From positions 189,593 through 253,592 of IMG/VR virus record IMGVR_UViG_3300020577_007233: a DNA stretch of 64,000 nucleotides; one strand, 5' to 3'. Origin of the DNA: a virus (lineage: Duplodnaviria > Heunggongvirae > Uroviricota > Caudoviricetes). Shown here one piece after another: positions 6,499-64,000 of the stretch. The notes beneath the pieces are model-generated. The model worked only from the letters and a program-made list of their open reading frames with translations. It was not told where the DNA came from and ran no database searches. Each line of letters opens with the position of its first letter. The first letter of the stretch is position 1. Made by a program: the position numbers and the translations under genes.

Positions 6499-6622
6499 AT
6501 CCTTTTCACTCCCACTCACGTTGGTTTTTATATGTGAGGATGGTATAAAACAATAATACCATAGATTACTCTATGGTACTATCGGATTTACCAATCTCCT
6601 CTATGTACTCAGCAAAATCGAA

Positions 6623-42401: not shown

Positions 42402-44740
42402 TTGTTTTTTCCAATAACTTGAATCTGCTCAGGAAACCAAGCAACAACCCATTGTTCATTTTTCTTGCTTGGGTCTATGTTGTTTCCGTGATTTACAACG
42501 ATACCGTCATATCCTGTTGCCTTGCTAATGAACCTAAGAACCTTTTCAAAGTTACTCTTATTGAAAAGATCGTACAGAATGAAAGCCGAAGACTTACCGA
42601 TGTATACTCTTGCCATACTCTCAAAAACAACCCTTTCGCCTTCAGTTGCAACATCTCCAAAGTTGTCTAGAATCTGCTTGCCTTCTAACTGTACGGCCAA
42701 CTTTAGAAGACCCCTTGTTTGATTAGCGGTTAGAGAAGGAAAAATATCAAAAGCACTTGACTGTTCAATATGTCCAGACGAAATTTGAATAGGCTTCTTT
42801 AGGTTTACCTTTGCCTGCATAACTCCAGGAGACGGTCCTCCTTGTCCATAATTGCCTGCTGTTTCTCGTCTGCTTGTGAAATAAAAACCAGGACCGTATT
42901 GGTCATTGCCTTGTCCTATGTAGTCATAAACAAAGCCTCTTTCTTGTATAGAGTTTTGGTCGCCAGTTCCGTGAAATACATTGTACTCAGGAAAGTCCGC
43001 TCTTTTGTACCAACCTCTTTTCGAGGTGCTTACACCAAGAAAACCAAAGTTTGATTGATAGTAATTGGAAACAGAGCTATCTTTGCTTGAAAGAATGAGG
43101 CGTTCCATTTCGGGCCATCTTGCTTTCATTATATGAACAGCATACTGACCGGCTGCCCAGCCGTTCTTAAGTTCCATGATTCTTTTTTCAAGCTCAGTCC
43201 ATCTCTGTCTTACAACATCTCTTGCGTAATACAACGCTTCGCTTAAGCCTCCCCATCTGTCATTGAGTAAGTAGTTCTCAACTTCAGGCCATCTTCCCTT
43301 GATAACTTCTTTGGCATATTCATACATATCCCAGATCTTGCCGCTATCAATAATGGCTTTTTCAAGCTCAGGCCATCTGAGGTTACAATTCTTCGCATAC
43401 TCTATAGCGTATTCCTGCGAGTAGTGCTGCTTGCCAGTTTCTAAGAGATAGTCTTCAAACCTCTTCTCTGCTCTTTGAGAACCATTCAAATACCAAAGAT
43501 ACCCAACAAGCTCTTCAGCACGATTCGGGTTCTTCATTATGGCCGCTTCATACTCGGGCCAAGGAGTGAAATCTCCACCTCCTGGCTTGCCCTGTCCATA
43601 ATTGTAGTCCGAATATCTGTCTTTCCAGTATTCAAAAGCATATGATGAATTGATGATTTTGGCTTCTTGATTTGGGTCTCTCCAACGAAGACCTTGCTGA
43701 CTAACTGCGTCTAGGTACTCTGCTATCCTGTTACCATCTGTAACTCCATAGTTCTTGAGTTTTTTCGCGTCAGAAGGAAGTTGGTTAAAGATGATCTTAT
43801 CTTCAACAGCCTTAAGTCTGCCAAATTTCTTTGCGTATTCTAGCATGTCATCAAAAGCATAACTTGGGAATTTGCCATCGTCTTCTTCTTTAACCTTTTC
43901 CATGAAGAAGTTCGCAAGATCCACATCTGCTCCCTCATAAGAAATGTTGAAAGCGTAGTTCTGAAGGAAGTCGTCCTTTTTGATGCTGCCTCTTTGTATA
44001 AGCTCTCTAATCAGAGAAATGAAAGATGGAGTAGGCTTTTTGATGGGCCTGTCAAGAATATCCATGACCTGATCAAGAGAAGACGTTGCTTGAGCATACT
44101 TTTCCCACTTGCCGCCATTGTTATGCAGAAACAACAAAAGAGGACCGCCCTCTAAATACATTTGAGCGTTTTCGTAGCCGTCAACATCTGCGTTTGTACA
44201 CCACTTGGTTCCCTTACCAAGCTCACAAACAGCTTCAGGAGTTGTCATCTCAAGAACTCGCCATTCGTTATCTCGAAAAATCTCCCTACTACCCTGCATC
44301 TTGATGTTTTTGGCAACCTGTCTTTTGCTTGCTTCGTCCTTGACGCCAAGAACCTTTCCAACAGCAACTTCAAGATCTCCAAGAGAAGGATATTGCTGTA
44401 GGTTTTTAAGCTCAAACTTGTTGTTCTGTTGAGTAAAGATAGTTAGAGCATTCGTAAGTCTTCCAAGGTCTTCTGGTAGCCTTATTTGACCGTTAACAAG
44501 CCACCCATATATGAAGAACAGAAAACGATTGGGGATTCTACCTTGAACAGTATGAAGGTATGCCTTGTAGTTGTTGAGATGGTACTCAAGCCTCGAAGCT
44601 CCTTTTTCGTTTGTAAGCTTTGATAGCTCAACCGCCGTTCCACGGTCCCAGTCGTTTAGGTTTCTTAAATAGGTTTCAGCGCTTGGGCTAAACCCCAACG
44701 CTTGATAGTTGATATCAGCTATGCGAACGAACCAATTCAC
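42398..44740 (-). CDS. Large protein (780 aa) with shared GTKWCT domain, four tandem RWPExE helical repeats and C-terminal ART/PARP-like motif block
   Basis: Four repeats in a row: NLRWPELEKAII, KGRWPEVENYLL, RQRWTELEKRIM and KARWPEMERLIL. The C-terminal NVFHGTGDQNSIQERGF...GPGFYFTS...FILYD resembles the PARP/Tpt1 H-G-[ST] ... Y-F-x signature. Confidence 0.5.
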   Translation of the reverse strand: MNWFVRIADINYQALGFSPSAETYLRNLNDWDRGTAVELSKLTNEKGASRLEYHLNNYKAYLHTVQGRIPNRFLFFIYGWLVNGQIRLPEDLGRLTNALTIFTQQNNKFELKNLQQYPSLGDLEVAVGKVLGVKDEASKRQVAKNIKMQGSREIFRDNEWRVLEMTTPEAVCELGKGTKWCTNADVDGYENAQMYLEGGPLLLFLHNNGGKWEKYAQATSSLDQVMDILDRPIKKPTPSFISLIRELIQRGSIKKDDFLQNYAFNISYEGADVDLANFFMEKVKEEDDGKFPSYAFDDMLEYAKKFGRLKAVEDKIIFNQLPSDAKKLKNYGVTDGNRIAEYLDAVSQQGLRWRDPNQEAKIINSSYAFEYWKDRYSDYNYGQGKPGGGDFTPWPEYEAAIMKNPNRAEELVGYLWYLNGSQRAEKRFEDYLLETGKQHYSQEYAIEYAKNCNLRWPELEKAIIDSGKIWDMYEYAKEVIKGRWPEVENYLLNDRWGGLSEALYYARDVVRQRWTELEKRIMELKNGWAAGQYAVHIMKARWPEMERLILSSKDSSVSNYYQSNFGFLGVSTSKRGWYKRADFPEYNVFHGTGDQNSIQERGFVYDYIGQGNDQYGPGFYFTSRRETAGNYGQGGPSPGVMQAKVNLKKPIQISSGHIEQSSAFDIFPSLTANQTRGLLKLAVQLEGKQILDNFGDVATEGERVVFESMARVYIGKSSAFILYDLFNKSNFEKVLRFISKATGYDGIVVNHGNNIDPSKKNEQWVVAWFPEQIQVIGKNK

Positions 44741-50409: not shown

Positions 50410-51328
50410 GCCATCTCAAGGCTGCTGGCAACTGCTTAGGCCATACATACCTATATAGTTCGTTCTTCATAATTTGAACGCTCTTGTTGCCAAAGCCTCT
50501 CACCAAAGCTTTCTTTGCTTCTTCAAAAGTCCATCTGCCGCCATACCTATCAACAAAGTGTTGAACAAACTTGTTGGGATCAAAGTCTTCATCAACCCTA
50601 AATACTCTTCTCGTTGCATGATGAGACTCTCTATTGGCGCTGCCCTTAAACTCGTAATCCTTATTGCTCGCCAAGAACTGCTGTCTTGATACATTTGTAA
50701 GTTGACCGTTACGATTGTCTCGTAACCATACTCTTGTAATACGGTTAGGATTCAAGTGACCAACAAACAAGGCTTGGCTTTCGCCAAATCCTAATAGAGT
50801 ATTCGCAAGCTCTGGTCTTTCGCTTTGAGAGATAGGCGGAATGTTACGATCAACCGCTCGTTGCCTTGCCTTCATTCTCTCTTCTTCTCTTTTGGCCTTA
50901 CTGTTGCCAAAGTATTCAGCCATTTGTCCTTGAACGGTATATGAGCCGCTAGGCCATACGGGAGCCTCAAGCTCGTTCATGTACGCATGAAACTCAATTA
51001 TCCAAGCTCCAAACTCCGAAGCAGTCTTAGGATTGGTTGCTACAAATAAGCCTTGAGGATTGTTGTCGGCTTCGTAAGAGTATACTCGCCCAACCCTTGC
51101 TTTACCAGATAAGCCATGACGACATGCAGATATCGCATCCTCTAAATCACGAAAACCGTGAAACAATCTTACAGAGTCGTTGCTCTTGATAAGCGGTCTT
51201 TCTTCAGGGCTGCGACCAGGAGGTAATGTAAACCTGTCCGCTTCCTTCTGAAGCTCCATAGCCGTAATGTAAGAGTTGCTGTAAATCTTCTTCATTGTCA
51301 AAAGTCTCTTAGCTGTCAAAAATGTCAC
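50375..51328 (-). CDS. Hypothetical protein
   Basis: 317-aa ORF. Confidence 0.45.
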   Translation of the reverse strand: MTFLTAKRLLTMKKIYSNSYITAMELQKEADRFTLPPGRSPEERPLIKSNDSVRLFHGFRDLEDAISACRHGLSGKARVGRVYSYEADNNPQGLFVATNPKTASEFGAWIIEFHAYMNELEAPVWPSGSYTVQGQMAEYFGNSKAKREEERMKARQRAVDRNIPPISQSERPELANTLLGFGESQALFVGHLNPNRITRVWLRDNRNGQLTNVSRQQFLASNKDYEFKGSANRESHHATRRVFRVDEDFDPNKFVQHFVDRYGGRWTFEEAKKALVRGFGNKSVQIMKNELYRYVWPKQLPAALRWLGQEYKKRNVV

Positions 51329-52124
51329 GTTTCAAACAACTGTTGCAGTTGATGAAAGCAATGTATTCGCTACGTTCTGTATTCTCTTTCTTGACATTAC
51401 CAACCTTCTTGGACTTGACAAACTTCCAGTCATACATCGGGAAAACTTCTTTTGCTGTAGAACCATAGCAAAAGATGATCGGAGCTTTGATTCTTCCTAT
51501 TAGGTCAACAGTTGTTTGCGGATTGTAAGATTTGTCTTTGTAGAGCATGTGCGAAATTTCTTTCTTCTTCAAATCCAAGTACGGCGGATCTAAAAACACC
51601 AAATCCCCATCCTGCTCAACATAATCCGTAGCTTCGCCTAGTTCAAATCTTGAGCTTTGTAGCTTTGGAAGACACGCTATCGTCCTATCTACCGGCAAAA
51701 ACTTCTTCCCATACATCTTGTAACTTTGAAAGTCGCCAGCTATCAAACCACAACAGTTCACACGAATGTAGTTCAAAGCTCCTGCACACAACTCAGTCCA
51801 AGGTTCTAACCCAATCTCTAACATATCAAGCTTGCGTATGTCTGTAATGCCTTTTTCAAGGCTTCTGAGCCTAAATTTCTCAAGGTTGACTATATCTTCA
51901 GGTTTGCTTCTATGGAGATAGTAATAGATGGATATAACTAAAGGATTGCGGTCAATTCCGTATCCCTCAGTAGTCGTATTGAATATCATGCTAGCTGAGC
52001 CGCAATAAAGCTCGCAAAGCCTTTTATGAGATGGAAGGTCTTCGAGATAAGGAATGAGCCATCTCTTGCTGCCTGAATAGCAAAAAGCCATGTTCTCTTT
52101 GTGCGTGAAAATTGATTCGTTCAT
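51309..52124 (-). CDS. dam: N6-adenine DNA methyltransferase, Dam-like (D12 class)
   Basis: FLDPPYL (the DPPY motif) and an N-terminal FCYSGSKRWLIPYL like the Dam AdoMet-binding region. Confidence 0.8.
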   Translation of the reverse strand: MNESIFTHKENMAFCYSGSKRWLIPYLEDLPSHKRLCELYCGSASMIFNTTTEGYGIDRNPLVISIYYYLHRSKPEDIVNLEKFRLRSLEKGITDIRKLDMLEIGLEPWTELCAGALNYIRVNCCGLIAGDFQSYKMYGKKFLPVDRTIACLPKLQSSRFELGEATDYVEQDGDLVFLDPPYLDLKKKEISHMLYKDKSYNPQTTVDLIGRIKAPIIFCYGSTAKEVFPMYDWKFVKSKKVGNVKKENTERSEYIAFINCNSCLKRDIFDS

Positions 52125-53358: not shown

Positions 53359-54219
53359 CTAACTAAAAATGTCATACACATCTTTAGAAGATTCTGTATC
53401 AAATCTTTCTTTCCAATGAAGCATCGTATGACAGTTATGACAGAGAACGTCACATTTATTAATTTCTTGTTGTATAGATTTTATGCTTTTGCCTTTTGCC
53501 ACTAATCTTCCTATTTCACTTGTTTTCTCTTTGGGATCTCGATGGTGAAAACATAAAACAGCCGGATGACTTTCTCCGCAGTCTTTACAAGGATGGTTAA
53601 GTTTGTATTCCCAAATATATTCCATTGCTTTATATTTTCTTCGAGTTAGGTTTTTTCGAATATCTAGTTTTTTGTTTTTGCATACTTGTTCTATTGTAGG
53701 AACTGAACTTTTTAACTTATTTTGCCTCTTTTTGAAATAATAGTGCTGAGCATTAGTGTACTTGTATTGCGTCTTCAAAAATGTTTGTTTCTCAAGTTCT
53801 TTGATTTCCGATAAGAGTCTTTCTTTTTCTTTTAGCCGACTCTCATGTTGTTCTAGAAAAATAGATTCTTGTTTATCTCTAAGATTTTCTATTTCTTTTC
53901 TTATTATTTCTTGCTCTAATTTCCGTTTTGCTTCGTTTTGTAGATTGATTTTCTGATTTTCTAATTCTACTAACTCACTTTGTTCTTTTTGAGCCTTTTC
54001 AAGATTCTTTAATAGAAGATCATATCGTTGCTGATTTTCTTCGCTCATCCCTTCGAGGGATATCTTTTTGATTTCTCTTCTAATAGAACCAAGATATTGT
54101 TCTAAGCGATATCTTTCTTTATTCTGAGACCGCCATTTTTTCTTGTATTCTCTTTGTTTTTGTTTATCTTTGTATGGCATATAGCTAGTTATCGTGTGTT
54201 TTACTATTCTACGTTTCAA
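53359..54219 (-). CDS. HNH endonuclease with K/E-rich coiled-coil N-terminus
   Basis: C-terminal CKDCGESHPAVLCFHHRDPKEK...CDVLCHNCH. A TTG start is inferred. It sits at the composition boundary. Confidence 0.7.
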   Translation of the reverse strand: MKRRIVKHTITSYMPYKDKQKQREYKKKWRSQNKERYRLEQYLGSIRREIKKISLEGMSEENQQRYDLLLKNLEKAQKEQSELVELENQKINLQNEAKRKLEQEIIRKEIENLRDKQESIFLEQHESRLKEKERLLSEIKELEKQTFLKTQYKYTNAQHYYFKKRQNKLKSSVPTIEQVCKNKKLDIRKNLTRRKYKAMEYIWEYKLNHPCKDCGESHPAVLCFHHRDPKEKTSEIGRLVAKGKSIKSIQQEINKCDVLCHNCHTMLHWKERFDTESSKDVYDIFS

Positions 54220-54395
54220 TCTTCACACTAATAGGAAAAAGGCCGTAGCTGTGTATACTTTAGGCTACCACTGGCGAATATAGATATCTTACTTTTCCTG
54301 AAGACCCCCCCTATGGGGTACGGGGTACTCCTTTTATCATTATGAGTGGGAAATAACAACTCCCATTCTTCCACTGCGCCAGGCCCCCACCCCTC

Positions 54396-54578
54396 CTAAG
54401 AAAGTCTAGCCCTTCTTAAGCTGCTCCTCAGTTCCTTAAGCTTTGCCTTGAACTTGGCATGGATGGATGGGTCATCCTTGCAGCCTGCGTATCCGCCAGC
54501 GGCAACGTCTCTGCGCCATTGCGAGTAGTCGTCCTCTGTCTTATCAATCTGCTGTTGGATGGTCATGGGCTTGTTCAT
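54396..54578 (-). CDS. Small hypothetical protein (60 aa)
   Basis: Minus ORF directly downstream of motif copy 54597. Confidence 0.45.
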   Translation of the reverse strand: MNKPMTIQQQIDKTEDDYSQWRRDVAAGGYAGCKDDPSIHAKFKAKLKELRSSLRRARLS

Positions 54579-54685
54579 ACCTACAACCTTTGCGCAGAAA
54601 GTCTAGCCTCCTTAACTTGGTACGGAACCCATACCCTTGCGGGCTAGGTTAGGTTGGCTCAACCCTTTACCCGTACCGTGCGCCG

Positions 54686-54892
54686 TTAGCCCTTCTTGGG
54701 CTTTGTTACCTTGAGGCTGATGCGTCCCTTGTTGTTGGAGGCGAAGGCGAGGACTCGGTTGAGCATATGGTTGGCCTTCTTCCAACCGGCGACTCGGACA
54801 ACATCATCGACTTCGAGGGAAACGTCGATGTTAAGACGAGTCTGCTTGCTTGAGCGGGACTTGGTTGCCTTGACTGTTTTGGTTGCTGCCAT
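54686..54892 (-). CDS. Small basic protein (68 aa), possible DNA-binding
   Basis: Downstream of motif 54911, after an AAGGA RBS. Confidence 0.45.
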   Translation of the reverse strand: MAATKTVKATKSRSSKQTRLNIDVSLEVDDVVRVAGWKKANHMLNRVLAFASNNKGRISLKVTKPKKG

Positions 54893-54916
54893 GTTCCTTG
54901 TTTCCTTTGAGGAAGT

Positions 54917-55405
54917 CTAGCCCTCAACCCAATACGCTCGGCTGCTTTCGGTGACGTAGTTATTTTCCGTCATCTGCCAAGCCTTTCCATTGTGACGAAT
55001 GGAGTTTGTAAAGTATTTCGGCTTGTTGTTTTCGTCGAGGATGGCGATGCTGTAATCGCCAGCGGTCTTGGGAGGGTCAGTAAAGACGCAACGAAGTTTT
55101 GCCTTGAAACTGACAGGCTTGTAGGCTTTCTTCTTTCTCGGCTTGTCCAGCCGAACGAGGTCGGTAAAGACTTTGCCGTAGGGAAGGGGAGGATGGCCCT
55201 CCTTGTCGGTCGGAGCCTTGACTGAGGCGACAACCGCATACTCCTTAATATGACGATTGTAGGCTTCCCATTGCTTTGCGATTTCGGTTGCTTCGGCAAT
55301 GGTTTTTGGTTCTGGACCGCTGGGGCCAAAGTTGCCCTGCCAAGTTCCATCAACTTTGTTGCCGTTCGTTTTTTCGACTTCGATGATGGAGTAGTTCATG
55401 TTCAT
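54917..55405 (-). CDS. Hypothetical protein (162 aa)
   Basis: Downstream of motif 55418. Its TAG stop is the CTAG core of motif 54911. Confidence 0.5.
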   Translation of the reverse strand: MNMNYSIIEVEKTNGNKVDGTWQGNFGPSGPEPKTIAEATEIAKQWEAYNRHIKEYAVVASVKAPTDKEGHPPLPYGKVFTDLVRLDKPRKKKAYKPVSFKAKLRCVFTDPPKTAGDYSIAILDENNKPKYFTNSIRHNGKAWQMTENNYVTESSRAYWVEG

Positions 55406-55428
55406 TACGAAGGGTCAGGAAGTCTAGC

Positions 55429-55557
55429 CTACCGCTGAGAGTTCTTGGGCTGCCGCTGCTTGTTGCGTTCTCTCCGCCGTTCGTTCCTCCGCTGTTTGCG
55501 CTCTTGTTCGGCTGCCCAGCGTTGGATGGCGTTCGCATCTCTTTCAAAGTCGCTCAT
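55429..55557 (-). CDS. Small Arg/Gln-rich protein (42 aa)
   Basis: Hand translation gives MSDFERDANAIQRWAAEQERKQRRNERRRERNKQRQPKNSQR. It lies downstream of motif 55576. The 65-aa ORF listed in the track is in another frame and crosses a motif, so it was rejected. Confidence 0.35.
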   Translation of the reverse strand: MSDFERDANAIQRWAAEQERKQRRNERRRERNKQRQPKNSQR

Positions 55558-55637
55558 GCTTATGAGTTGTTGTTAGAAAGTCTAGCCTTGTTAAATGACA
55601 AACCCCCTTACGGGGGTTGTTTGGGGTTGGGGTTGAC

Positions 55638-56006
55638 TTAGGCGACCGCTGCCGCTTTGGGCTTGGGCGGGAGGCTGATGCGCCCGCCGCGACGGATGAC
55701 GTAGGGGATGGGGCTGTCGTTGGGGACGGTGATGCCGTAGATGCTGCTGAGCATCCCAGTCGCCTGCTTGTCGCCGCCGAGGTCGCGGATGGTCTTGGCG
55801 GCGATTCGGATGGTCTGGCGAGTGCCGCTGGCGATGGTTGCGCGGCCCTTGGTCATGATCGTTCCGATGAGGCTCTTGACTTCGGCATCGGAGAGGTTGG
55901 GGTTGGCGGCGCGGACGGCGTTGATAGCGAAATCGACGCTGTGGATGCTGCTATTGAGGATGGTGAGGGTGAAGGGCTTGGCGGTCTTCTTGGTCTTGGT
56001 CGTCAT
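55638..56006 (-). CDS. Hypothetical protein (122 aa)
   Basis: RBS AAAAGGAAAC. Downstream of motif 56071. Confidence 0.5.
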   Translation of the reverse strand: MTTKTKKTAKPFTLTILNSSIHSVDFAINAVRAANPNLSDAEVKSLIGTIMTKGRATIASGTRQTIRIAAKTIRDLGGDKQATGMLSSIYGITVPNDSPIPYVIRRGGRISLPPKPKAAAVA

Positions 56007-56087
56007 TGGGCGTTTCCTTTTCTTTGTTAGGGGCGAGGCATTCGTCCCTTATGGCTCTTGGAAGTTGCGAGAAAGTCTAGCCTTGAA

Positions 56088-56381
56088 TTACCCCTGCCTC
56101 AAACTGAGTTGAGGGATAACAATGCGGCTGGCGATGGCGGCTGTTTCCTTGACGATGTGCCGAGTTCCCTTAAGTTCGGCTGTCTTGGAGTTGCCTTCGA
56201 GTTGGCGGTTCTGCTTGGCGATTCTGCGCCCGAGGGTTTGGGGCGTAACTTCGTTGACCTTGAAGAAACGGCGAGCGTTGCCTTGCCGTTCTGCTTCTTC
56301 ATCGAGGGAATCGAGGCCGCTACCCTTTTGGGCTGCGGCTCGTTGACGGTTGAGGTTGCGGAGGGCTTTTTCGTTGAACAT
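56088..56381 (-). CDS. Hypothetical protein (97 aa)
   Basis: RBS AAAGGA. Downstream of motif 56416. Confidence 0.5.
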   Translation of the reverse strand: MFNEKALRNLNRQRAAAQKGSGLDSLDEEAERQGNARRFFKVNEVTPQTLGRRIAKQNRQLEGNSKTAELKGTRHIVKETAAIASRIVIPQLSLRQG

Positions 56382-56461
56382 TGGGCTGGTCCTTTCTGCT
56401 GCCTATTTCTGGCGAGAAAGTCTAGCCTTGCCTTTCGGCAACGATGAAAGCCTTGCCTTTG

Positions 56462-56950
56462 TTAGCCCTTTGCCTTGCCGACCTTGACCACCTTGAGGAG
56501 AAAGCGAGCGCGACGGCCTGCGTGCTGTCCAGGCTTGCGGTTGAAAACGATGTCGGCCCTTGCCTTGCTCATGCCAGCATCGCGCCGCTTCTTGCGGTTG
56601 ATGACGGTTTGCTTCTTGATGGGGGTGATGCTGATGGGGTGGCCGAGGTCGAACACCGTACCGGCGGCTTCGGGCTGTCCTGCGTCAAACTGCTTGGCGG
56701 ACACAAACTGCTGAGCGTTGGGCGAGAAAACGAGGCGGTGGCCGTTGGCGATGGCTCGGATTTCGAGGCGGTCATTCTGAAAGACGACGGGATCTCCGTA
56801 GCCAGCGAGGCGCATGCCTTCGGCGTGTTGGCAATGCCGAGGGTCTTGGAGTTTGCACTCCTTCGCATCGGGCAGCGAGTAGAGGCGAGGCATCTTCTTG
56901 TTGCCCACCTTGAAATACTTGTGCTTGGGATTGGGCTTGGTCGTGGTCAC
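56462..56950 (-). CDS. Basic hypothetical protein (162 aa)
   Basis: GTG start with an AGGA RBS. Downstream of motif 57003. Confidence 0.45.
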   Translation of the reverse strand: MTTTKPNPKHKYFKVGNKKMPRLYSLPDAKECKLQDPRHCQHAEGMRLAGYGDPVVFQNDRLEIRAIANGHRLVFSPNAQQFVSAKQFDAGQPEAAGTVFDLGHPISITPIKKQTVINRKKRRDAGMSKARADIVFNRKPGQHAGRRARFLLKVVKVGKAKG

Positions 56951-57008
56951 TTCTTCTGTCCTTTCATGGAATGGGGTTGACGATGGGGCTTGTTATTTGC
57001 GCGAAAGT

Positions 57009-57431
57009 CTAGCCGATTGCCTGTGCCTTGCGTGCTTCGTATTCCTCTTTGGCCTTCACCCACTTGTCGAGGGTTTCGATTGCTGCCTCTGGCACGCCTT
57101 CGCGGAAGTTGTCTGACCAAAGGCGGCAATACGCTCCGTCGCTGTATTCGCTGAGGCCAATCCATTGAACGTGGTTGTTCTCATCGAGGAACATGCAACC
57201 ACCAAAGCGGCTGAATGTGCTTGCCTTGGGCTTGTTCCAAACTTCGCCTGCCACCTTGGGGTTGGTTGTCTGGCTCCAGAATCGCACGCCCTTGTTGGGG
57301 CTGTATTCGAGCCAGTACCGAATCTTGCAGCGAAGTCGGAACCCAAAGGGGTAATCATCGACGACGTATGCGGTTTCGGGTGAGATGTGTCCCTTGAGGA
57401 GTTTCGTGACGGTTGGGAGGGTATTGGGCAT
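57009..57431 (-). CDS. Hypothetical protein (140 aa)
   Basis: Downstream of motif 57449. Its stop TAG lies inside motif 57003. Confidence 0.5.
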   Translation of the reverse strand: MPNTLPTVTKLLKGHISPETAYVVDDYPFGFRLRCKIRYWLEYSPNKGVRFWSQTTNPKVAGEVWNKPKASTFSRFGGCMFLDENNHVQWIGLSEYSDGAYCRLWSDNFREGVPEAAIETLDKWVKAKEEYEARKAQAIG

Positions 57432-57454
57432 GGTTCTTGTTTCTTGCGCGAAAG

Positions 57455-57586
57455 TCTAACCCTGCCTTGCGCCTCTGCGATTGAGGAGTTCGGTTGTGAT
57501 GGCGAGCATGGCCTCAACGTCGCCTTCCATCTTGGCGAGTTCGTAGGCATCGCGGAGGTGATTGAACGTCATTTGGTCGAGTCGCA
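57455..57586 (-). CDS. Small protein (43 aa)
   Basis: Hand translation gives MRLDQMTFNHLRDAYELAKMEGDVEAMLAITTELLNRRGARQG. The stop TAG lies inside motif 57449. Downstream of motif 57627. Confidence 0.35.
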
Positions 57587-57844
57587 TGGGTCGAGTCCTT
57601 TCGTTGTTACATATAATAAGTTGCCAGAAAGTCTAGTCGTTGGCGGCTCGGAGAGTTCCACTCATAACGATTACCGCTAGTTAAGCTCAACAAGGCCCTC
57701 AAAGGGCCTTGTGAGCTGCCGTTGGATGATTCGCTTGTTTGGTTGGGGTTAGTTCTGTTTCATGGTTTGTTCTCCCTTGGTTTGTCGGAGTTGACTTGTC
57801 TGATGACTCTTAACAAGGGGCTGAAAGTCTAGCCCCCTTGTCTC

Positions 57845-58195
57845 TTACCATCCGAGTTCCTTCGGGCGGTTGGTATTCTCTACCCTCTTGCGTTGGGGCT
57901 GAGGGTTGCGATTCTGAGCGGCGGCAACCGCTGCGCCGAGGAATCCTTCGATATTGGCGACGCGCTGGCCGAGTTCTTCGGCATCCTTCTTCTTCTTCCG
58001 TTCGTCCATGATAGCGTTCATGGCGAGGGAGCGAAGTCCTTGCGCTTCCGCCCGTTCCAACAAAACTCGTTCGAGTTCTGTCAGTTCGTCGTAGGCGAGG
58101 AATTGTTGGGGGGCTGGCTTGTCCAGACCGCCGTATTGTTCGGCGGCAAGGATGAGCATGGGGTCCATTCGACGGAGTTGGTTGGGGTTGGGCAT
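57845..58195 (-). CDS. Hypothetical protein (116 aa)
   Basis: Downstream of motif 58214. Confidence 0.5.
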   Translation of the reverse strand: MPNPNQLRRMDPMLILAAEQYGGLDKPAPQQFLAYDELTELERVLLERAEAQGLRSLAMNAIMDERKKKKDAEELGQRVANIEGFLGAAVAAAQNRNPQPQRKRVENTNRPKELGW

Positions 58196-58232
58196 GACTC
58201 TTATTTCCTTTGGGAAAGTCTAGCCCTTCGAT

Positions 58233-58526
58233 TTAACGACCTGCTTTGGCTTGGATGCGGACGTTGTAGAAGTTGCCCTCTCGTTGGTCGCTCTGTACGT
58301 TCCCAAAATGAACGATCCAATTCCTCTCGTCAAACTCCTTGACAGTCCTTCTGATGACTCTCTCATTGACAAGGGAAGTGGCAATGGTTGTATCTACCGT
58401 GCTGCCAGTAACGTATTGGCGAGTGAGAGTCTGAATGAGGGAATCGACCACCTTGACGAACATGGCTTCGTCTTGGTCTTGCTGAATCTTGTCGAGTTTG
58501 CTTGGCGTTGGGATGTTGATGTTCAT
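58233..58526 (-). CDS. Hypothetical protein (97 aa)
   Basis: Translationally coupled to the upstream gene. Confidence 0.45.
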   Translation of the reverse strand: MNINIPTPSKLDKIQQDQDEAMFVKVVDSLIQTLTRQYVTGSTVDTTIATSLVNERVIRRTVKEFDERNWIVHFGNVQSDQREGNFYNVRIQAKAGR

Positions 58527-58714
58527 TAGATTCTCCCTGTTGCAGTAAACTCCACCTTGAGGCCGTTAGAAAGGGTCACGATGCCCTCAAGGGCTGCTGC
58601 GAACGATGAGGGATGAAGGTTGCGAGAGTTGTTGCACTTGCTGCATGGTCCTCCCTTGAGGCCGCTGTGCTTGCCGCAGTCTTTCTTAACAAGTTTGATG
58701 GGCGGTTGTTCCAT
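58526..58714 (-). CDS. Small Cys-containing protein (62 aa)
   Basis: CGKHSGLKGGPCSKCN. Downstream of motif 58733. Confidence 0.45.
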   Translation of the reverse strand: MEQPPIKLVKKDCGKHSGLKGGPCSKCNNSRNLHPSSFAAALEGIVTLSNGLKVEFTATGRI

Positions 58715-58771
58715 GCGTTCTACTTCTTGCGCGAAAGTCTAACCCTTGCGCAGTGGTGGCGCAGTGTTGCA

Positions 58772-59020
58772 TTACTGATTTGCTTCGAGTTGCGCCTTGT
58801 ACCGCTGAAAGTTGTGACGTTGTGTTGCTTGGGCTGCTCGGTACTCAACTTGACAACTGATGCAGCGAATCTCTGCGCTGCTTGTTCGTTCGAGTTTCTC
58901 AAAGGGCTGATGGCAGTCGTAACAAATGCCGACGATTCTTCTTGCGATGCAAGTATCGCAAGCAACAACGGTGGGGATTTCTTCCCCTTTGCAGAATCCG
59001 CATTTGTCGTTGCTGGGCAT
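58772..59020 (-). CDS. Cys-rich zinc-ribbon-like protein (82 aa)
   Basis: CGFC...CDTC...CYDCH...CISC. Downstream of motif 59039. Confidence 0.5.
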   Translation of the reverse strand: MPSNDKCGFCKGEEIPTVVACDTCIARRIVGICYDCHQPFEKLERTSSAEIRCISCQVEYRAAQATQRHNFQRYKAQLEANQ

Positions 59021-59044
59021 GACTCTATCTTCCGTTCTGGAAGT

Positions 59045-59356
59045 CTAGCCCTTGATGCGAATACTTCCCTTCATGCGTTCATCATCGCACCAACAACCGC
59101 AGACTCCTCCGCAACCTGGGCAACCACCCTTGATTGTGACATCGGCTTCGAGAGCGTAGGCTGCATTGCCGATGATTCGAGCGGTCTGATTCCAAATGGC
59201 TTGACTGGTGCCGTCAAGTTCCTTTGCTGACTTGTCCGAAACCATTTGGCAGGCTTTGGCAGTCGCCTTAAGCATGCGCTCGCCGTATTGCTCGATGAAA
59301 ACGAACATTGACAGAGCGAGTTCATCGTCGGAAAGTTGTTTGGGAGGGTTGGGCAT
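59045..59356 (-). CDS. Cys-rich protein (103 aa)
   Basis: GGCPGCGGVCGCWC. Its stop TAG lies inside motif 59039. Downstream of motif 59375. Confidence 0.5.
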   Translation of the reverse strand: MPNPPKQLSDDELALSMFVFIEQYGERMLKATAKACQMVSDKSAKELDGTSQAIWNQTARIIGNAAYALEADVTIKGGCPGCGGVCGCWCDDERMKGSIRIKG

Positions 59357-59390
59357 GGCTTTTACTTCCTGCGAGAAAGTCTAGCCCTTA

Positions 59391-59669
59391 TTAGTTGGGC
59401 ATCTTATGTCTTGCCGCTGCTGCGAGTTCAGGCGAGACAACGAATCCCATGCCAAGCCAGTTACGGTCGGCGAGAGAGGTGAACGCTTCCATCTTGGCCG
59501 CCTCAATTGGCCGCTTCTTCATTCGCTCAAAAGCGATCCAAATGCGCTTGATGGTTCGAGGAGTCGGTCGTTTGGGATGATGAAGCAGAGCGTAAACGTG
59601 GACGATGCTTGGCAGGTGCATCATGCGACGGATGCTCATGTTATTCGGATTGGGGCAGTCCGTTGTCAT
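59391..59669 (-). CDS. Hypothetical protein (92 aa)
   Basis: Downstream of motif 59687. Confidence 0.45.
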   Translation of the reverse strand: MTTDCPNPNNMSIRRMMHLPSIVHVYALLHHPKRPTPRTIKRIWIAFERMKKRPIEAAKMEAFTSLADRNWLGMGFVVSPELAAAARHKMPN

Positions 59670-59881
59670 TGCTTTTGTTTATTGAGCGAAAGTCTAGTCT
59701 TTGGGGCATTGGGCTGGAAGGACGTTCACTCATAATGATTACGATGTTTAAGTAGCCAGAGCGGCTTAGGGGCATTGAGTTCCCTATCCGCTGCTCCCTG
59801 CAATGCTCCCCTCGGAACGTGTCCGAGAGGCAGGTCGCCTGGCTTTTCCCATTGTAAGGCTTTGACCCGAAAGTCTAGCCC

Positions 59882-60070
59882 TTAGATTCTGTTTCCCTTG
59901 CTGTCGCAAGGTCCGAGCGTAACCCAATGAGCGTCGTAGGGTTGGGGCTTGACAAGGGGTGGCCCCTTCCAAGTTCCGTTCCTCCGTTGCTCCATCTCAT
60001 GCGCCCATGAGCCTTCGTAGCGGCTGATGGGTTCGTACTTGCCGTTCGGTTTCTTCTTTCCAAGTCCCAT
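59882..60070 (-). CDS. Small protein (62 aa; start moved to ATG at 60070)
   Basis: Starting at MGLGKKKPNGKY places the ATG 18 nt from motif 60089. The track's TTG start would be only 6 nt from the motif. Confidence 0.4.
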   Translation of the reverse strand: MGLGKKKPNGKYEPISRYEGSWAHEMEQRRNGTWKGPPLVKPQPYDAHWVTLGPCDSKGNRI

Positions 60071-60099
60071 GCTTCTTAACAAGGGTTGGAAAGTCTAGC

Positions 60100-60513
60100 C
60101 TACAGTTTGCTGACTCTTTCGCCGTCCCCAACGAGGTCGTACTCGGGAAATTCCTTGCTGAGTTTGGTAAGGCGTTCGCCGAGTTCGTTGGCTTCGAGTT
60201 CCCTTCTGTCCCAAAAGCCAGCCCCATGACCGTTGCGAGTGAGCCAAAAGTCGTGGCCGTACTGAGCGGCATCCGCTTCTTCGAGTTCCTCGGTGGTAAG
60301 TTCTTCGAGCATCATGGTTGCAAACTGAGCGCAGTCGGCAACCATATCAAAGTAAGTCGCCGGCTCGATATCATCGCCGTCGTACTGACCGTCCAAGTTC
60401 TCTGAGGTGGCTTGATCGCCTTCGTTGGTACTTGACCAAAGGGCGCAAACGATGTACGCCTTCACAAAGTTGTCAAACCAATTCGAGGGGTTGGAGTTGA
60501 AGTTCTTACTCAC
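60100..60513 (-). CDS. Acidic hypothetical protein (about 137 aa)
   Basis: Start inferred at a GTG that overlaps the upstream small gene's TGA (GTGA coupling). The 249-aa track ORF crosses motif 60708 and is treated as an artefactual extension. Confidence 0.4.
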   Translation of the reverse strand: MSKNFNSNPSNWFDNFVKAYIVCALWSSTNEGDQATSENLDGQYDGDDIEPATYFDMVADCAQFATMMLEELTTEELEEADAAQYGHDFWLTRNGHGAGFWDRRELEANELGERLTKLSKEFPEYDLVGDGERVSKL

Positions 60514-60689
60514 GCCTTCTCCCCTTCTGGCACGCCCGCCGCTTCGAGGAGTTCGGTATCGCTTGCGTCGATGTGCTTTGCGAGGGATTGGAGTTCCGAA
60601 AGTTCTCCGTAAGAGATACGTTCGGCTCGGAGTTCCTTGCGAAGATACTCCAATCTGTCTCGGATGCTTTGAGGGGTTGAGTTGGGCAT
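60510..60689 (-). CDS. Small protein (59 aa)
   Basis: Hand translation gives MPNSTPQSIRDRLEYLRKELRAERISYGELSELQSLAKHIDASDTELLEAAGVPEGEKA. The ATG is 18 nt downstream of motif 60708 with an AAAGG RBS. Confidence 0.4.
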   Translation of the reverse strand: MPNSTPQSIRDRLEYLRKELRAERISYGELSELQSLAKHIDASDTELLEAAGVPEGEKA

Positions 60690-60713
60690 GACCTTTATTT
60701 CTGGCGCGAAAGT

Positions 60714-61046
60714 CTAGCCGACGATGCTGGTGTATGCGTCTGGCTTGGTTTCGCCCTTCTTGCGCAAAAACCAACCTCTCGTTGAGATGTGGATGATTTC
60801 GTAACCCTCGGCAATCTGAGGGAAGGGGCGGTACTCGCCTTGCCACCATTCGTCATTACGAACGCATCCGCCGTTGTAACGGGTTGACCCATAGGCTGAG
60901 GGAATGGACGCTGATGACCCCATGTAACCCTTGCCGTAACCATCCCCAAAGGCGTTCTTAGGATTGGCTTTGGCAACCTTGGCGCATTTCGCTGCATCCC
61001 AAACCTCTTGCGGATGCTGAAACAATGGAAGGTTGGGGTTGACCAT
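60714..61046 (-). CDS. Gly/Tyr-rich hypothetical protein (110 aa)
   Basis: Downstream of motif 61065. Its stop TAG lies inside motif 60708. Confidence 0.45.
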   Translation of the reverse strand: MVNPNLPLFQHPQEVWDAAKCAKVAKANPKNAFGDGYGKGYMGSSASIPSAYGSTRYNGGCVRNDEWWQGEYRPFPQIAEGYEIIHISTRGWFLRKKGETKPDAYTSIVG

Positions 61047-61146
61047 GCTTAAGGATTTGCTGATGAAAGTCTAGCCGATTGCGTTGCACTCATAACGATT
61101 ATGGTCGCTTGTTATTTCCTTGCACTCATAACGATTTCGGTTAGTT

Positions 61147-61186
61147 AAAAGCCAAACGGCAAGGGATTCGTCCCTTACCGTTGGCT
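61147..61186 (-). terminator. Intrinsic terminator (hairpin plus T-run) preceding a promoter-like cassette
   Basis: On the minus strand the stem AAGCCAACGGTAAGGGA/TCCCTTGCCGTTTGGCTT is followed by TTTTAAC. Confidence 0.55.
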
Positions 61187-61223
61187 TGCCCAATGTTCGT
61201 TTGGAAAGTCTAGCCCTCGGCTT

Positions 61224-61949
61224 TCAGACCTTCATCATGCTGCGCTCGCCGATGAGGTACGCTTCGGCAATGTCCCAAATTCGCTCCCTCATTTCCATCG
61301 GACGCTCGGTAAAGTTGTCGGTAATCCGATACCGTTCGCCGCCGATGGCGATTTCGACGATGTTCTCAATACCGTAGACAACGAACCGAACCGCATCATC
61401 CCCAAGCCCCTGATTGGAGTAGTCGGAGCGAGGGGCAAGGTACGGCTCGACGTTTTCGGTCGGCTCGGTCGTTCCGTCCGCGAGTCGGAGATACTCGGGC
61501 GTTCCAACCGCCTTGAAGATGAAGCGGAGATAGGCCGCGCCGTCGTCGCCCTTGTCCTTCTTGTTGACGCTGAGGCAAGTCGGACCATCCTCGGCCATGA
61601 TAGGCCGATGCCATGATTCGCCCTTGCGGAAGCGGTCTTGAATTTCCGCCTCAAGTTCCTCGGCTGAGAGGGGGGCAAGGTTCGCCGCCGCCCGTTCCGC
61701 CTCAATCGCCTTTGCGAGTCGGTTCTCGACAACGCGCTCGTAACGGCCCGCGATGGTTCCGTTGACCTTTGTGACCTTGCCGATGGTCAAACCATCCTTC
61801 ATGGTACGGCCCGCCTTGAAGGGGTTGGGAAGGCCGTTGGTTCCGTTCGCCCTCGTATCGGGTTCGGTAACAACCACCATGCTGATGATGGTATTGGCGG
61901 TAACGCCAAGCAGAAGGGTTCGGAGTTGGTTGCGAGAGATGAGTTTCAT
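61224..61949 (-). CDS. Secreted hypothetical protein (241 aa, N-terminal signal peptide)
   Basis: Hydrophobic N-terminus. Downstream of motif 61987. Confidence 0.5.
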   Translation of the reverse strand: MKLISRNQLRTLLLGVTANTIISMVVVTEPDTRANGTNGLPNPFKAGRTMKDGLTIGKVTKVNGTIAGRYERVVENRLAKAIEAERAAANLAPLSAEELEAEIQDRFRKGESWHRPIMAEDGPTCLSVNKKDKGDDGAAYLRFIFKAVGTPEYLRLADGTTEPTENVEPYLAPRSDYSNQGLGDDAVRFVVYGIENIVEIAIGGERYRITDNFTERPMEMRERIWDIAEAYLIGERSMMKV

Positions 61950-62128
61950 TGGGCAGAGTTCCTTTCTGTCTACTGAAAGTTCCTTGAAAGTCTAGCCCCA
62001 AAGTTCATTGGTTGGGGTTGCTTTCGATGCTACTGGAAATTCCGTTGAAAGTCTAACCCTTGCGCCGAATCAGGAAGTTCACTCATAACGATTATGCTGC
62101 AATCATTATAGGTGAGATTGTTCGATGC

Positions 62129-62155
62129 AAAAACGAAAGCCGCAGTTGGCTTTCG
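62129..62155 (-). terminator. Strong intrinsic terminator immediately after motif copy 62156
   Basis: On the minus strand the stem CGAAAGCC-AACTGC-GGCTTTCG is followed by TTTTTGC. Confidence 0.65.
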
Positions 62156-62171
62156 GAAGTCTAGCCCTGTT

Positions 62172-62489
62172 TCAGCCAGCCGCAATGGTCGCTTCAAGGG
62201 GGACGTTTGGTGCGCCTGCTTCAATGGCGACGTTATCCCTCTTGGTCTGAATCTGCTCAACCTTGAGTTCGCAGAGTTCAAGATGCCCTCTCCAAACAAC
62301 CGCCTTACCTTTTTCGTGGACCTCGATGGTTGTTTTGACTGCATCCTTTTCGCTCATCTTGCAAACCTCCATGAGAAGGTTAGCAACGAAGTCGGGCGTA
62401 TGAACGTCGGAGTTCCAAAGGAGAACAACATGGGGAGGAAGATGGTCAACCTTGGTTTCGGTTGCTTGTTCAAGGGTTGCGTTGGGCAT
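62172..62489 (-). CDS. clpS: ClpS-like ATP-dependent Clp protease adaptor
   Basis: VVLLWNSDVHTPDFVANLLMEVCKMSEKDAVKTTIEVHEKGKAVVWRGHLELCELKVEQI is collinear with E. coli ClpS ([23 protein letters not shown]...[22 protein letters not shown]). Confidence 0.7.
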   Translation of the reverse strand: MPNATLEQATETKVDHLPPHVVLLWNSDVHTPDFVANLLMEVCKMSEKDAVKTTIEVHEKGKAVVWRGHLELCELKVEQIQTKRDNVAIEAGAPNVPLEATIAAG

Positions 62490-62559
62490 CTGATTCTTTT
62501 CGACATCGCCTATTTCGGCTCTGAAAGTCTAGCCGCCGTTTTTTTCCACATCGAAGTTC

Positions 62560-62950
62560 AGCGGTCTTGACTCCGCCTCGTCTTTTGGGGTCTTGCACAG
62601 TGCAAACAGTGTGAGTTCAGTGCCTCTTGTGTGCCTTTTGTGTGCAGTTCAGTGGTCCTTGCTGCGCCTGCCTCCGCCTCGGCTGCCTCGGAGCGGCTCC
62701 TCTTCTTTTGGGGTCTTTATGATCTTTCAAGATCGCCCTTGTTTTTGGGCCTTTTTGCACCTCGGAGGTGATCGTCTTTGGGGGTCTTGACGGTCAAATG
62801 ACCGCTTTGACCGCCATCTGATCCATGCTCTTTTGGGTCGTTGGACAAATCTATTTGTATCGGCTTCTGTTTGGGGGTCTTTGGTCTGGGTGCTGCTTCC
62901 CCGATCTTTCCGGGTTTGCCGGGTCTTTGACCCAGATCTGGGTCTCGTTT
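62560..62950. repeat. Non-coding iteron/palindrome region: about five copies of TTTGGGGTCTT plus two perfect palindromes (GATCTTTCAAGATC and GACCCAGATCTGGGTC); GATC-rich
   Basis: Iteron copies lie at about 62581, 62705, 62774, 62829 and 62867. The palindromes are at 62721-62734 and 62929-62944. At least six GATC sites fall within about 260 bp. No credible ORF is present. Confidence 0.6.
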
Positions 62951-63178
62951 ACCCTGCGACGGAAAAGGTCACTCATAACGATTATATGCTAGCGCAAACA
63001 TAAGGGCGGCTTGTTTAGGGCCGCCCGTTGATTCGTACCTCCCGATTCTCTTTCGGGTTCCGAATAGCAGAGTTCCGTCCGCTCGGGGTAACTAAGGCTC
63101 GCAACCATACACTGACCAGTCGCCCGGTCTATCCTGTTGCTTTTACCATTCCATGCCTTTTGTTTTCGGCGCGAAAGT

Positions 63179-63364
63179 CTAGCCGACTTTCAGAGTCAGA
63201 GGATGCTTGAATGAGGGGCGAGAAACAATCCGATTGGGCTTCTCGGCGTTCTGAACCTCAAGGGTTCCTCGGAGCCAAATGGGAACCTTTGAGTGAACGG
63301 TGGGGTTCTTGGGCCGCTGTGCGGCTTCTGCTGCTCTCTTGGCTTCTTTGCTTGCTCGGCTCAT
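63179..63364 (-). CDS. Small basic protein (61 aa)
   Basis: RBS AAAGGAAAAG. Its stop TAG lies inside motif 63173. Confidence 0.45.
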   Translation of the reverse strand: MSRASKEAKRAAEAAQRPKNPTVHSKVPIWLRGTLEVQNAEKPNRIVSRPSFKHPLTLKVG

Positions 63365-63520
63365 GGGCTTTTCCTTTTCAACAAAGGGCGAGAAAGGCGA
63401 GGACGCAGAGAACGAAACGGTCTCGGTTGCTCATGCTTATGACTTCTTACTTAGAAGTCTAGTCTCCTTAAAGCAGAGCGGAGGACCAACGGCCCTCTAC
63501 GCCCTGCTGCCCAAGTTTCA

Positions 63521-63709
63521 TTACCACTTCTTCGTGGCTGTCTGCTGAACGGTTGCCTTGTTGCCGTTGCTTCCGAACGCCTGCCTTGCTGCGTCGGCTG
63601 CGTTGTTCGCCCCAGTCACGGTCTTGGTTTGACCGCTGTGAGTGACTTGGAACGAGTTATGGGAACCTTGCTGCATTGGCTGGAACGGGGTGTTATTCGA
63701 GTTTGTCAT
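63521..63709 (-). CDS. Small protein (62 aa)
   Basis: Downstream of the double motif at 63728 and 63744. Confidence 0.45.
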   Translation of the reverse strand: MTNSNNTPFQPMQQGSHNSFQVTHSGQTKTVTGANNAADAARQAFGSNGNKATVQQTATKKW

Positions 63710-63748
63710 GCCTATTGAAATGACCCCGAAAGTCTATCCCCAAAAAGT

Positions 63749-63958
63749 CTAGCCCTGACTCTTGGTTGGCGTCAGAAGAAAAGGCTCGTTTGCTTCTTCA
63801 GGACGGTTGGGCCAAGAGCGAAGCCGCTTCATCTCAGGGTCGGCGTGCTTCAGATCCCAAACGCTCTTGGGGTCGATGGTGCCAGGGTAGGGCCAGTCGT
63901 TGGGACTGACGCCCCGCCACATTACCGCTGCCTTGCTGAAGCCTTGGCAGTAACCCAC
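63749..63958 (-). CDS. Small protein (69 aa as listed; N-terminus uncertain)
   Basis: Its stop TAG lies inside motif 63744. Confidence 0.4.
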   Translation of the reverse strand: MGYCQGFSKAAVMWRGVSPNDWPYPGTIDPKSVWDLKHADPEMKRLRSWPNRPEEANEPFLLTPTKSQG

Positions 63959-64000
63959 AAGGTCTTGGTAGGCATTGCGGTTGCCGCTGACTCGCTGAAT

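Follow-up and report, generated by a model that had tools for sequence, protein, structure and literature searches.

A partly conserved, GATC-rich spacer upstream of a ClpS-like gene in an uncultivated huge phage as a candidate protein-binding control region

Iterons are combined with clustered GATC sites at replication origins such as Escherichia coli oriC, oriR of phage P1, and the lambda ori, and transcription-activated phage origins have a promoter-like element upstream. Dam-sensitive control sites are also found in phages, as in the GATC sites upstream of Mu mom and the hexamer repeats of the phage P1 pac site. In phage T5, untranslated repeat regions are embedded in a set of small early genes of low conservation and are themselves more conserved than the open reading frames (ORFs) next to them, and the first-step-transfer DNA is restriction-sensitive (10.1101/866236). 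T4-type phages carry PeSL cassettes, in which a terminator stem-loop and a promoter motif are repeated through small variable genes, with strain-specific insertions and deletions (indels) at the motifs (PMC2839356, PMC4122927). Here we describe a 435-bp ORF-free spacer, located upstream of a ClpS-like gene in a 64,000-nt stretch of viral DNA (positions 189,593 to 253,592 of IMG/VR record IMGVR_UViG_3300020577_007233; this whole stretch is called the window), and compare it with these systems. The spacer is bounded by two short motifs, P1 on its upstream and P2 on its downstream side, and belongs to an array of small genes that occupies the last part of the window.

We propose that the spacer is a protein-binding cis-regulatory region upstream of the P2 motif of the ClpS-like gene, set in a hypervariable early-gene array, and we put the probability of this reading at about 0.5. 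The proposal follows from the position of the spacer between a terminator with its P1 motif and P2, with all local genes on the minus strand. The features of the spacer are non-random, and its conservation argues that the element is functional. Contigs from at least seven lineages were collected through ClpS homologues and a conserved neighbour protein (ClpS identity from 98% to 60%), and spacer conservation was read from the alignments A1, A3, and A4. A long ORF-free stretch upstream of ClpS is kept in all seven ClpS-carrying lineages, and the promoter-proximal half of the spacer is conserved down to the 60%-identity relatives, including GGAGCCGCTCC, the CACTGAAC words, two copies of GCACACAA, a 16-mer, and CGATGTGRAAAAA. 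The exact 16-mer is present in lineage L092 although its ClpS is only 60% identical and, by our reading, a 16-mer-like copy begins 56–63 nt before the TAGACTT of P2 in 5 of the 7 lineages; L092 and L081 carry an exact copy at approximately 100–118 nt and a degenerate copy at approximately 52 nt before TAGACTT. In the distal half, an island at 62829–62874 is approximately 92% identical between the window and L081 (counted on A3), compared with 57% at the ClpS third-codon positions. The words of the promoter-proximal block (GGAGCCGCTCC, CACTGAAC, GCACACAA) do not occur in 21.9 kb of array coding sequence, and neither do AAAGACC, AGACCCC, GCACACA, GATGTCC, and GGAGCCG, which recur in 3 to 4 independent spacers. 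The original prediction had described the region as a candidate replication origin or regulatory hub, and the second of these gains partial support from the retention of the spacer in seven lineages, from islands and 16-mers that are better conserved than synonymous sites, and from words that recur in the array spacers. The components of the spacer are the following:

62535..62969, minus strand: ORF-free control spacer (the element proper), between P1 and P2 of the ClpS-like gene
62539..62553, minus strand: CGATGTGGAAAAAAA word just upstream of P2; the plus strand holds the DnaA-box-like TTTTCCACA (62542–62550)
62579..62594, minus strand: exact 16-mer AAGACCCCAAAAGACG, starting 63 nt upstream of the TAGACTT of P2, aligned and conserved in six lineages
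62593..62700, minus strand: promoter-proximal conserved block with GGAGCCGCTCC (62690–62700), CACTGAAC words, GCACACAA twice (62627–62634 and 62638–62645), and TTGCAC-T-GTGCAA (62593–62605)
62702..62717, minus strand: 16-mer copy AAGACCCCAAAAGAAG, 1 mismatch
62721..62734: inverted repeat GATCTTTCAAGATC, GATCTT-TC-AAGATC, with 6-bp arms, an asymmetric 2-bp centre, and two GATC
62738–62753 and 62827–62842, minus strand: further weak 16-mer copies
62758..62773: palindrome CACCTC-G-GAGGTG plus ATC
62764–62773, minus strand: GATCACCTCC, within the stretch of the CACCTC palindrome plus ATC and followed by its own complement GAGGTG
62773..62788, minus strand: 16-mer copy AAGACCCCCAAAGACG, 1 mismatch, at the edge of a lineage-specific insertion
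62775..62828, minus strand: 54/55-nt segment that the window shares with L088 and L089 alone, flanked by two 16-mer-like copies
62829..62874, minus strand: conserved island CCAAACAGAAGCCGATACAAATAGATTTGTCCAACGACCCAAAAGA, with the highest conservation of the distal half; it holds ACAAAT-NN-ATTTGT (62845–62858)
62866..62881, minus strand: degenerate 16-mer copy AAGACCCCCAAACAGA
62929..62944: perfect 16-bp palindrome GACCCAGATCTGGGTC with the GATC at 62935; mutated in one arm in L087 and missing from L080 and L081

The predicted stretch of approximately 400 bp without ORFs was confirmed, the spacer containing only unconserved ORFs of at most 65 aa. The repeats are built differently from the five or six copies at spacings of 60–120 bp that had been announced. 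The exact 11-mer TTTGGGGTCTT occurs only twice, at 62584 and 62707; allowing at most 1 mismatch, there are 4 copies in the spacer (62584, 62707, 62778, and 62871), irregularly spaced by 123, 71, and 93 bp, and 8 in the whole window against 1.64 expected. The true repeat unit is a 16-mer (CGTCTTTTGGGGTCTT on the plus strand, AAGACCCCAAAAGACG on the minus strand), which is found with at most 1 mismatch at 62579, 62702, and 62773 (1 exact copy and 2 with 1 mismatch) and in 3 weak copies at 62738, 62827, and 62866, so that the claim stands as three strong and three weak repeats, all six in the same orientation. Six distinct palindromes (arms of at least 6 bp, centre of at most 3 bp) fall within 436 bp, which is the maximum of the window (window mean, 0.6 per 436 bp). 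The perfect 16-bp palindrome GACCCAGATCTGGGTC is as predicted, and so is the copy of the motif CACTCATAACGATTA with which the region ends at 62970–62984; the supposed 14-bp palindrome exists as the inverted repeat GATCTTTCAAGATC and is not perfect because of its asymmetric centre. This inverted repeat is kept in L079, L080, and L087 (with a changed centre in L087) and deleted in L081, and among relatives the arms of ACAAAT-NN-ATTTGT are fixed while the 2-nt centre varies (AG, CT, CC). With arms of 6–8 bp and centres of 0–2 bp, the palindromes fit dimeric DNA-binding proteins better than RNA hairpins. The 54/55-nt segment, with the palindrome CGGTCA-AA-TGACCG and the GATC at 62820, has the appearance of an indel mediated by the repeats. 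The word GATCACCTCC is identical to the 3′ end of 16S rRNA, the anti-Shine-Dalgarno sequence, and has counterparts in L087 (GGATCACCTCC, approximately 6932–6942) and, twice, in the spacer of the distant relative L005 (AGATCACCTCG, 1596–1620).

Several other identities were considered for the spacer and rejected. A coding reading, including the ATG inside P1, fails since indels of 2 nt and 55 nt between relatives break all frames. Judged from the sequence, the repeats are too short and irregular for a CRISPR-like array, the palindromes too short for a protelomerase site, and the G-runs too far apart for a G-quadruplex.

Six GATC sites (62721, 62731, 62770, 62820, 62903, and 62935) lie within 218 bp, in agreement with the predicted at least six in approximately 260 bp against approximately one expected, and the spacer is the densest 391-bp stretch of the window for this tetramer. 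Base composition and the window average (2.56 GATC per kb) each predict approximately 1.0 site (P about 6e-4), whereas the local background of 0.65 per kb predicts 0.25 (P about 3e-7). The density is therefore above average, as the prediction demanded; the sites are nonetheless lineage-specific. There are 6 in the window, 5 in L079, 4 in L087, 2 in L080, 1 in L092 (partial spacer), and 0 in both L081 and L093 (partial spacer for the latter), and because the counts fall with distance the individual GATC sites are not conserved. Other ORF-free spacers of the group also contain GATC clusters, in which (A)AGATC is the usual context. Approximately 6.4 kb upstream in the sister strain L084, a second ORF-free spacer carries 5 GATC (AAAGATC) in 75 bp together with three 16-mer copies, one of which abuts a P2 motif; L079 has four GATC at 9–10-bp spacing, and L005 has three downstream of P1. 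The ORF at 51309–52124, which had been predicted to encode a Dam-type GATC methylase, does encode a D12-class N6-adenine methyltransferase (Pfam, 1.4e-11) whose best solved relatives are DpnM and T4 Dam (E about 1e-5), but it scores 39 bits against the Dam subfamily model, far below the cut-off of 114.85.

The GATC cluster stands out from an array that otherwise avoids this tetramer. In the array outside the spacer (54300–64000 minus 62535–62984; 9.25 kb), GATC, AGCT, and CCGG are avoided 5–8 fold, with 6 GATC against approximately 30 expected, 4 AGCT against approximately 30, and 4 CCGG against approximately 34; the spacer itself contains 2 CCGG, as read from the sequence. In the 42%-GC part of the genome these tetramers are avoided much less, and the avoidance in the array suggests selection against restriction on a block that is exposed early. 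Together with the analogy to the first-step-transfer DNA of T5, it implies that the array DNA would be accessible before protective functions come into play. Given its small genes, its avoidance of restriction sites, and its hypervariability, we infer that the array consists of early, host-takeover genes.

The array begins at approximately 54.3 kb (54200–54450) with a sharp switch in base composition, where GC content changes from 42% to 53% and AT skew to about -0.3, the plus strand beyond this point being strongly T-rich relative to A. From there to the window end (54.3–64 kb) every gene is small and on the minus strand. The junction at the array boundary, ATATAGATATCTTACTTTTCCTGAAG followed by an inverted P1, recurs in the independent assemblies L079 and L005, and is therefore not an assembly chimera. 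A search with the 15-mer P1 retrieved two IMG/VR contigs (494 kb and 370 kb) of the distant relative L005, which has the same architecture as the window array; in the 494-kb contig the array is internal. Strains whose flanks are 94–99% identical carry unrelated kilobase cassettes in between (window 60753–57432 compared with L079 3212–8147), a single 61-aa gene (window 63188–63370) is present or absent between strains, and the cassette breakpoints lie at or near P2 motifs. By analogy, this cassette replacement resembles the modular shuffling of PeSL cassettes. The N-terminus of several small array proteins that are otherwise unrelated reads MPN and then P, S, A, or T (ATGCCCAAC...; genes at 62489, 60689, 59356, 58195, 57431, and others), which points to a 5′ coding signal that they have in common or to a footprint of recombination.

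The flanks of the spacer contain the following features:

62128..62155, minus strand: terminator-like hairpin with T-tract that closes the ClpS unit
62172..62489, minus strand: ClpS-like gene of 105 aa (Pfam ClpS, 2.4e-19), downstream of the spacer
62517..62534, minus strand: P2, promoter-like motif GGCTAGACTTTC of the ClpS-like gene
62970..62984, minus strand: P1, conserved 15-mer TAATCGTTATGAGTG, downstream of intrinsic-terminator hairpins
62995..63026, minus strand: intrinsic-terminator-like hairpin GGGCGGC-CCTAAACAA-GCCGCCC followed by TTATGTTTG, invariant in relatives
63035..63147, minus strand: candidate structured small RNA, preceded by a P2 motif (63162–63184)

The core of P2, TAGACTT, occurs 29 times on the minus strand of the array (54400–63760; consensus aAGGGCTAGACTTTC, usually GGCTAGACTTTC), and in 13 of these 29 copies an ORF-opening ATG lies exactly 27 nt past the first T. 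In place of P2, L005 has the per-gene motif GACTAAACTT(T/C)C, and a TAAACTT variant stands 27 nt before an intron-containing tRNA gene. This tRNA gene (L005 1372–1510; IMG/VR 3300005681_000225, 494 kb) has a 67-nt insertion in the anticodon loop, scores 38.8 bits with the Rfam tRNA model, was missed by ARAGORN, and is flanked by a P2-type motif and by a terminator with P1. Since P2-type motifs precede a tRNA in L005 and a candidate structured RNA in the window, P2 would be a signal for transcription and not for translation, probably a phage-specific, -10-only promoter class placed ahead of almost every gene. No sigma-70-type promoter was found, P1 and P2 having no match to the sigma-70 early-promoter consensus. 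P1 is present in six minus-strand copies (62984, 62094, 61137, 61101, 59741, and 57673), which sit a few tens of bases (approximately 15–25 nt) after a hairpin and T-tract, and in one inverted plus-strand copy at 54334 that marks the composition and array boundary; in L087 it also forms a 14-7-14 inverted pair. Its core, AATC(G/A)TTATGAGTG, is invariant in 31 non-redundant copies from relatives. P1 may have some resemblance to the Fur box or to T7-type promoters, and it could act as a promoter, in recombination, or as a binding site. 

Upstream of P1 and its terminator, the block 63035–63147 could be a small RNA or an attenuator-like element. It is 97–99% identical among relatives, compared with 72–91% at ClpS third-codon positions, folds into several stems (RNAalifold, -47.6 kcal/mol) in which 6 pairs are preserved through compensatory change, and has no Rfam match; ahead of it, at 63143–63154, lies a 3-codon ORF, ATG GAA TGG TAA (MEW*), which reads MDW* in L081. 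On the plus strand, a scan of 61900–63300 gave 5 intrinsic terminators against 2.5 +/- 1.5 expected, which is not significant. The ClpS-like protein is also matched by the NCBIfam ClpS models, at scores below their cut-offs. Neither the small array proteins nor opposite-strand ORF calls in relatives gave DNA-binding or replication domains in Pfam and PHROG scans.

The window is phage-like in content, with ribonucleotide reductase, SNF2 and UvrD helicases, the D12-class methyltransferase, and an HNH endonuclease, and no tRNA or tmRNA was found in a scan of it. The ribonucleotide reductases closest to those of the window come from uncultured phages of 460–630 kb and from crAss-like phages. Deposited phages gave no match to the array in megablast or to the conserved 241-aa neighbour protein in tblastn, and searches of IMG/VR for related loci with ClpS and with the methyltransferase as queries returned no relatives. 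The window comes from an uncultivated huge phage, and no member of its lineage has been cultured. At the other end of the window (1–6570, minus strand), an ORF of at least 2190 aa without a PHROG match runs off the window start and may encode a giant virion or polymerase-like protein. A protein with a polyvalent-protein-type ADP-ribosyltransferase domain is encoded at 42398–44740; host-takeover functions are plausible for this protein and the ClpS-like adaptor.

Among the alternatives to a protein-binding region, a functional RNA leader is unlikely but the most probable. P1 would then be a promoter, and a 435-nt unstructured leader would bind an RNA-binding protein or a small RNA, modulating Rho or antitermination or controlling ClpS translation or stability, to which the anti-Shine-Dalgarno mimic GAUCACCUCC could contribute. 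The motifs all lie on the sense strand at every locus, P1 stands directly past terminators as a promoter would, the leader would be strongly depleted in U (10% U) and rich in A, C, and G, and GATCACCTC recurs in the leaders of the window, L087, and L005; the absence of secondary structure would suit a single-stranded binding platform. However, the shared sense orientation may merely reflect the common descent of the spacers, a promoter role of P1 is unsupported, the motif also occurring inverted (at 54334 and in the L087 pair), and palindromes with 0–2-nt centres make poor RNA hairpins. A stable or covarying RNA is not supported: the spacer has a minimum free energy z-score of -1.0 in sense and of -1.7 in antisense orientation, its RNAalifold energy is -17.3 kcal/mol over the whole length, where the covariation term is positive, and -0.07 kcal/mol over the proximal half, and Rfam searches of 11 kb and of a 721-bp region with lax thresholds returned only sub-threshold noise. 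A replication origin, with the 16-mers as iterons and Dam/SeqA-type control through the GATC cluster, or one in which a P1 transcript would prime replication, has a slim chance. Its co-oriented repeats, GATC cluster, and palindromes are real and statistically exceptional, an adenine methyltransferase is encoded in the same window, a promoter-like element lies upstream, and there is one DnaA-box-like site at 62542; such sites do not, however, occur in pairs in the spacer, and a single one, compared with 12 in 64 kb, does not exceed chance. The spacing of 123, 71, and 93 bp is out of helical phase and changes by 55 nt between near-identical strains, and these irregular 16-nt copies differ from iterons, for which at least 3 close, regularly spaced repeats of approximately 17–22 bp in helical phase are expected. 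No AT-rich unwinding element was found in the spacer, whose AT content (46%) equals the array mean and whose richest 40-bp window (62.5% AT) is lower than several other places in the array. The neighbours are the ClpS-like gene and small ORFs, with no matches to Rep, DnaA, O-type, initiator, or helicase-loader proteins; the helicase genes lie at 34–47 kb, and replication genes are 15–28 kb from the spacer. Over the 64 kb of a much larger genome, cumulative GC skew is flat across 62–63 kb, with no inversion at 62.7 kb, and the sole minimum, at approximately 54.4–54.8 kb, coincides with the composition change, gene strand not switching there. The GATC sites show no conservation (L081 and L093 have 0), each genome carries the motif set of the spacer at two or more loci, and a C-rich P1 RNA would disfavour a persistent R-loop. 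The origin half of the original prediction thus gains no support from these tests, given the irregular repeats, the lack of an unwinding element and of a nearby initiator, and the flat skew.

A DNA-entry or end site of a first-injected region, whether as a nucleoprotein anchor, as a target of programmed cleavage, or as a Chi-like cluster that attenuates exonucleases, is very improbable. It would account for the exceptional spacer with 6 GATC and 2 CCGG in an array purged of GATC, AGCT, and CCGG, as DNA entering unprotected would be, and transcription of all window genes points away from the array end, but paired DnaA boxes were not found, the array is internal to the 494-kb contig, similar spacers lie at several places in the array, and neither T5 nor any deposited phage is similar in sequence. 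Marginally less probable still is that the spacer is non-functional debris of recombination, made of promoter and leader remnants of cassette shuffling with repeats spread by slippage or unequal exchange. Frequent indels flanked by repeat copies, the exchange of array cassettes with breakpoints at or near P2, and a spacer identity, gaps counted, below that of ClpS third-codon positions all agree with such an explanation, whereas the retention of the spacer in all seven lineages, the conserved position of the proximal 16-mer relative to P2, the islands and 16-mers that far exceed synonymous sites in conservation, and the absence of the motif words from coding sequence argue against it. A more far-reaching possibility, which we regard as doubtful, though less so than an origin, is that the spacer is a DNA-level checkpoint in a first-entering, restriction-purged block, which tells the fully modified incoming genome from its replicated copies or pauses or anchors entry. 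The sole GATC/CCGG cluster of the block would be the sensor or cleavage point of a T5 injection-stop-like or methylation-gated switch, or possibly of a transcription-activated origin.

If the spacer is the protein-binding control region that we favour, the co-oriented 16-mers (AAGACCCCAAAAGACG) and the words CACTGAAC, GCACACAA, CGATGTGRAAAAA, and GGAGCCGCTCC would be linear sites for one or more sequence-specific proteins of phage or host origin. The proximal 16-mer, starting approximately 60 nt upstream of the -10-like TAGACT, would occupy a typical activator or operator position, and the distal copies may allow cooperative binding or looping. Such sites could set the timing or the template of ClpS-unit transcription, or insulate it from P1 read-through, and TAGACTTTC would be expected at transcript starts. 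The distal half, with its palindromes and GATC cluster, would be a lineage-specific elaboration that evolves fast via repeat-mediated indels and, if the D12-class methyltransferase targets GATC, could make the switch methylation-sensitive. Several points weigh against this proposal. The promoter role of P1 or P2 is putative and read from position; Pfam and PHROG scans of the neighbouring small proteins revealed no recognisable DNA-binding domain; and six different palindromes would imply several different binders, or none. The distal half is largely poorly conserved, being riddled with indels outside the island. Finally, motifs that all lie on the sense strand would be equally readable on an unstructured transcript.

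Almost all that is known of huge uncultivated phages comes from catalogues of their genes, and the logic of their cis-regulation is essentially unmapped. The present locus offers testable elements, namely a per-gene promoter-like motif, a terminator-linked 15-mer, a position-conserved, operator-like 16-mer, and a GATC-rich spacer in a GATC-purged block, which could be used to time and dissect early-gene expression, including that of a ClpS-like protease adaptor with a possible role in redirecting the proteolysis of the host. If a methylation- or entry-linked checkpoint were true, a mechanism known only from T5-like or Mu/P1-like phages would extend to a new clade; if the spacer is an ordinary operator region, it still helps to annotate such arrays.

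Compared with the known systems, the spacer shares with E. coli oriC, phage P1 oriR, and the lambda ori its clustered GATC, co-oriented repeats, and non-coding character in a genome that encodes an adenine methyltransferase, but it differs from them in its irregular, unconserved spacing and in having no AT-rich element, adjacent initiator, skew signal, or conserved GATC. As at Mu mom and phage P1 pac, a tight GATC cluster, with most sites in the context (A)AGATC, lies by a promoter-like element in a phage with its own adenine methyltransferase; unlike there, the GATC sites are lineage-specific, no terminase or mom-like gene is nearby, and the GATC specificity of the methyltransferase is only putative. 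With the untranslated repeat regions and the injection stop signal of T5, the spacer shares the same kind of repeat and palindrome density, and the block around it avoids restriction sites. The spacer differs from the T5 regions in having neither sequence similarity nor paired DnaA boxes, in its size (435 bp compared with 0.2–1.2 kb in T5), and in its repeats at a fixed distance upstream of a promoter-like motif; the T5 regions are located in a long terminal repeat at the first-injected end. With regard to the PeSL cassettes, the array differs in base composition from the remaining genome, P1 and P2 do not fit the sigma-70 consensus of the T4 early promoter, and the analogy covers the P1 and P2 flanks and not the repeat-rich spacer. 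In these flanks, the array hairpin with the P1 and P2 motifs and the strain-level replacement of cassettes are like those of PeSL cassettes, a hairpin and T-tract being followed by P1 at six sites.

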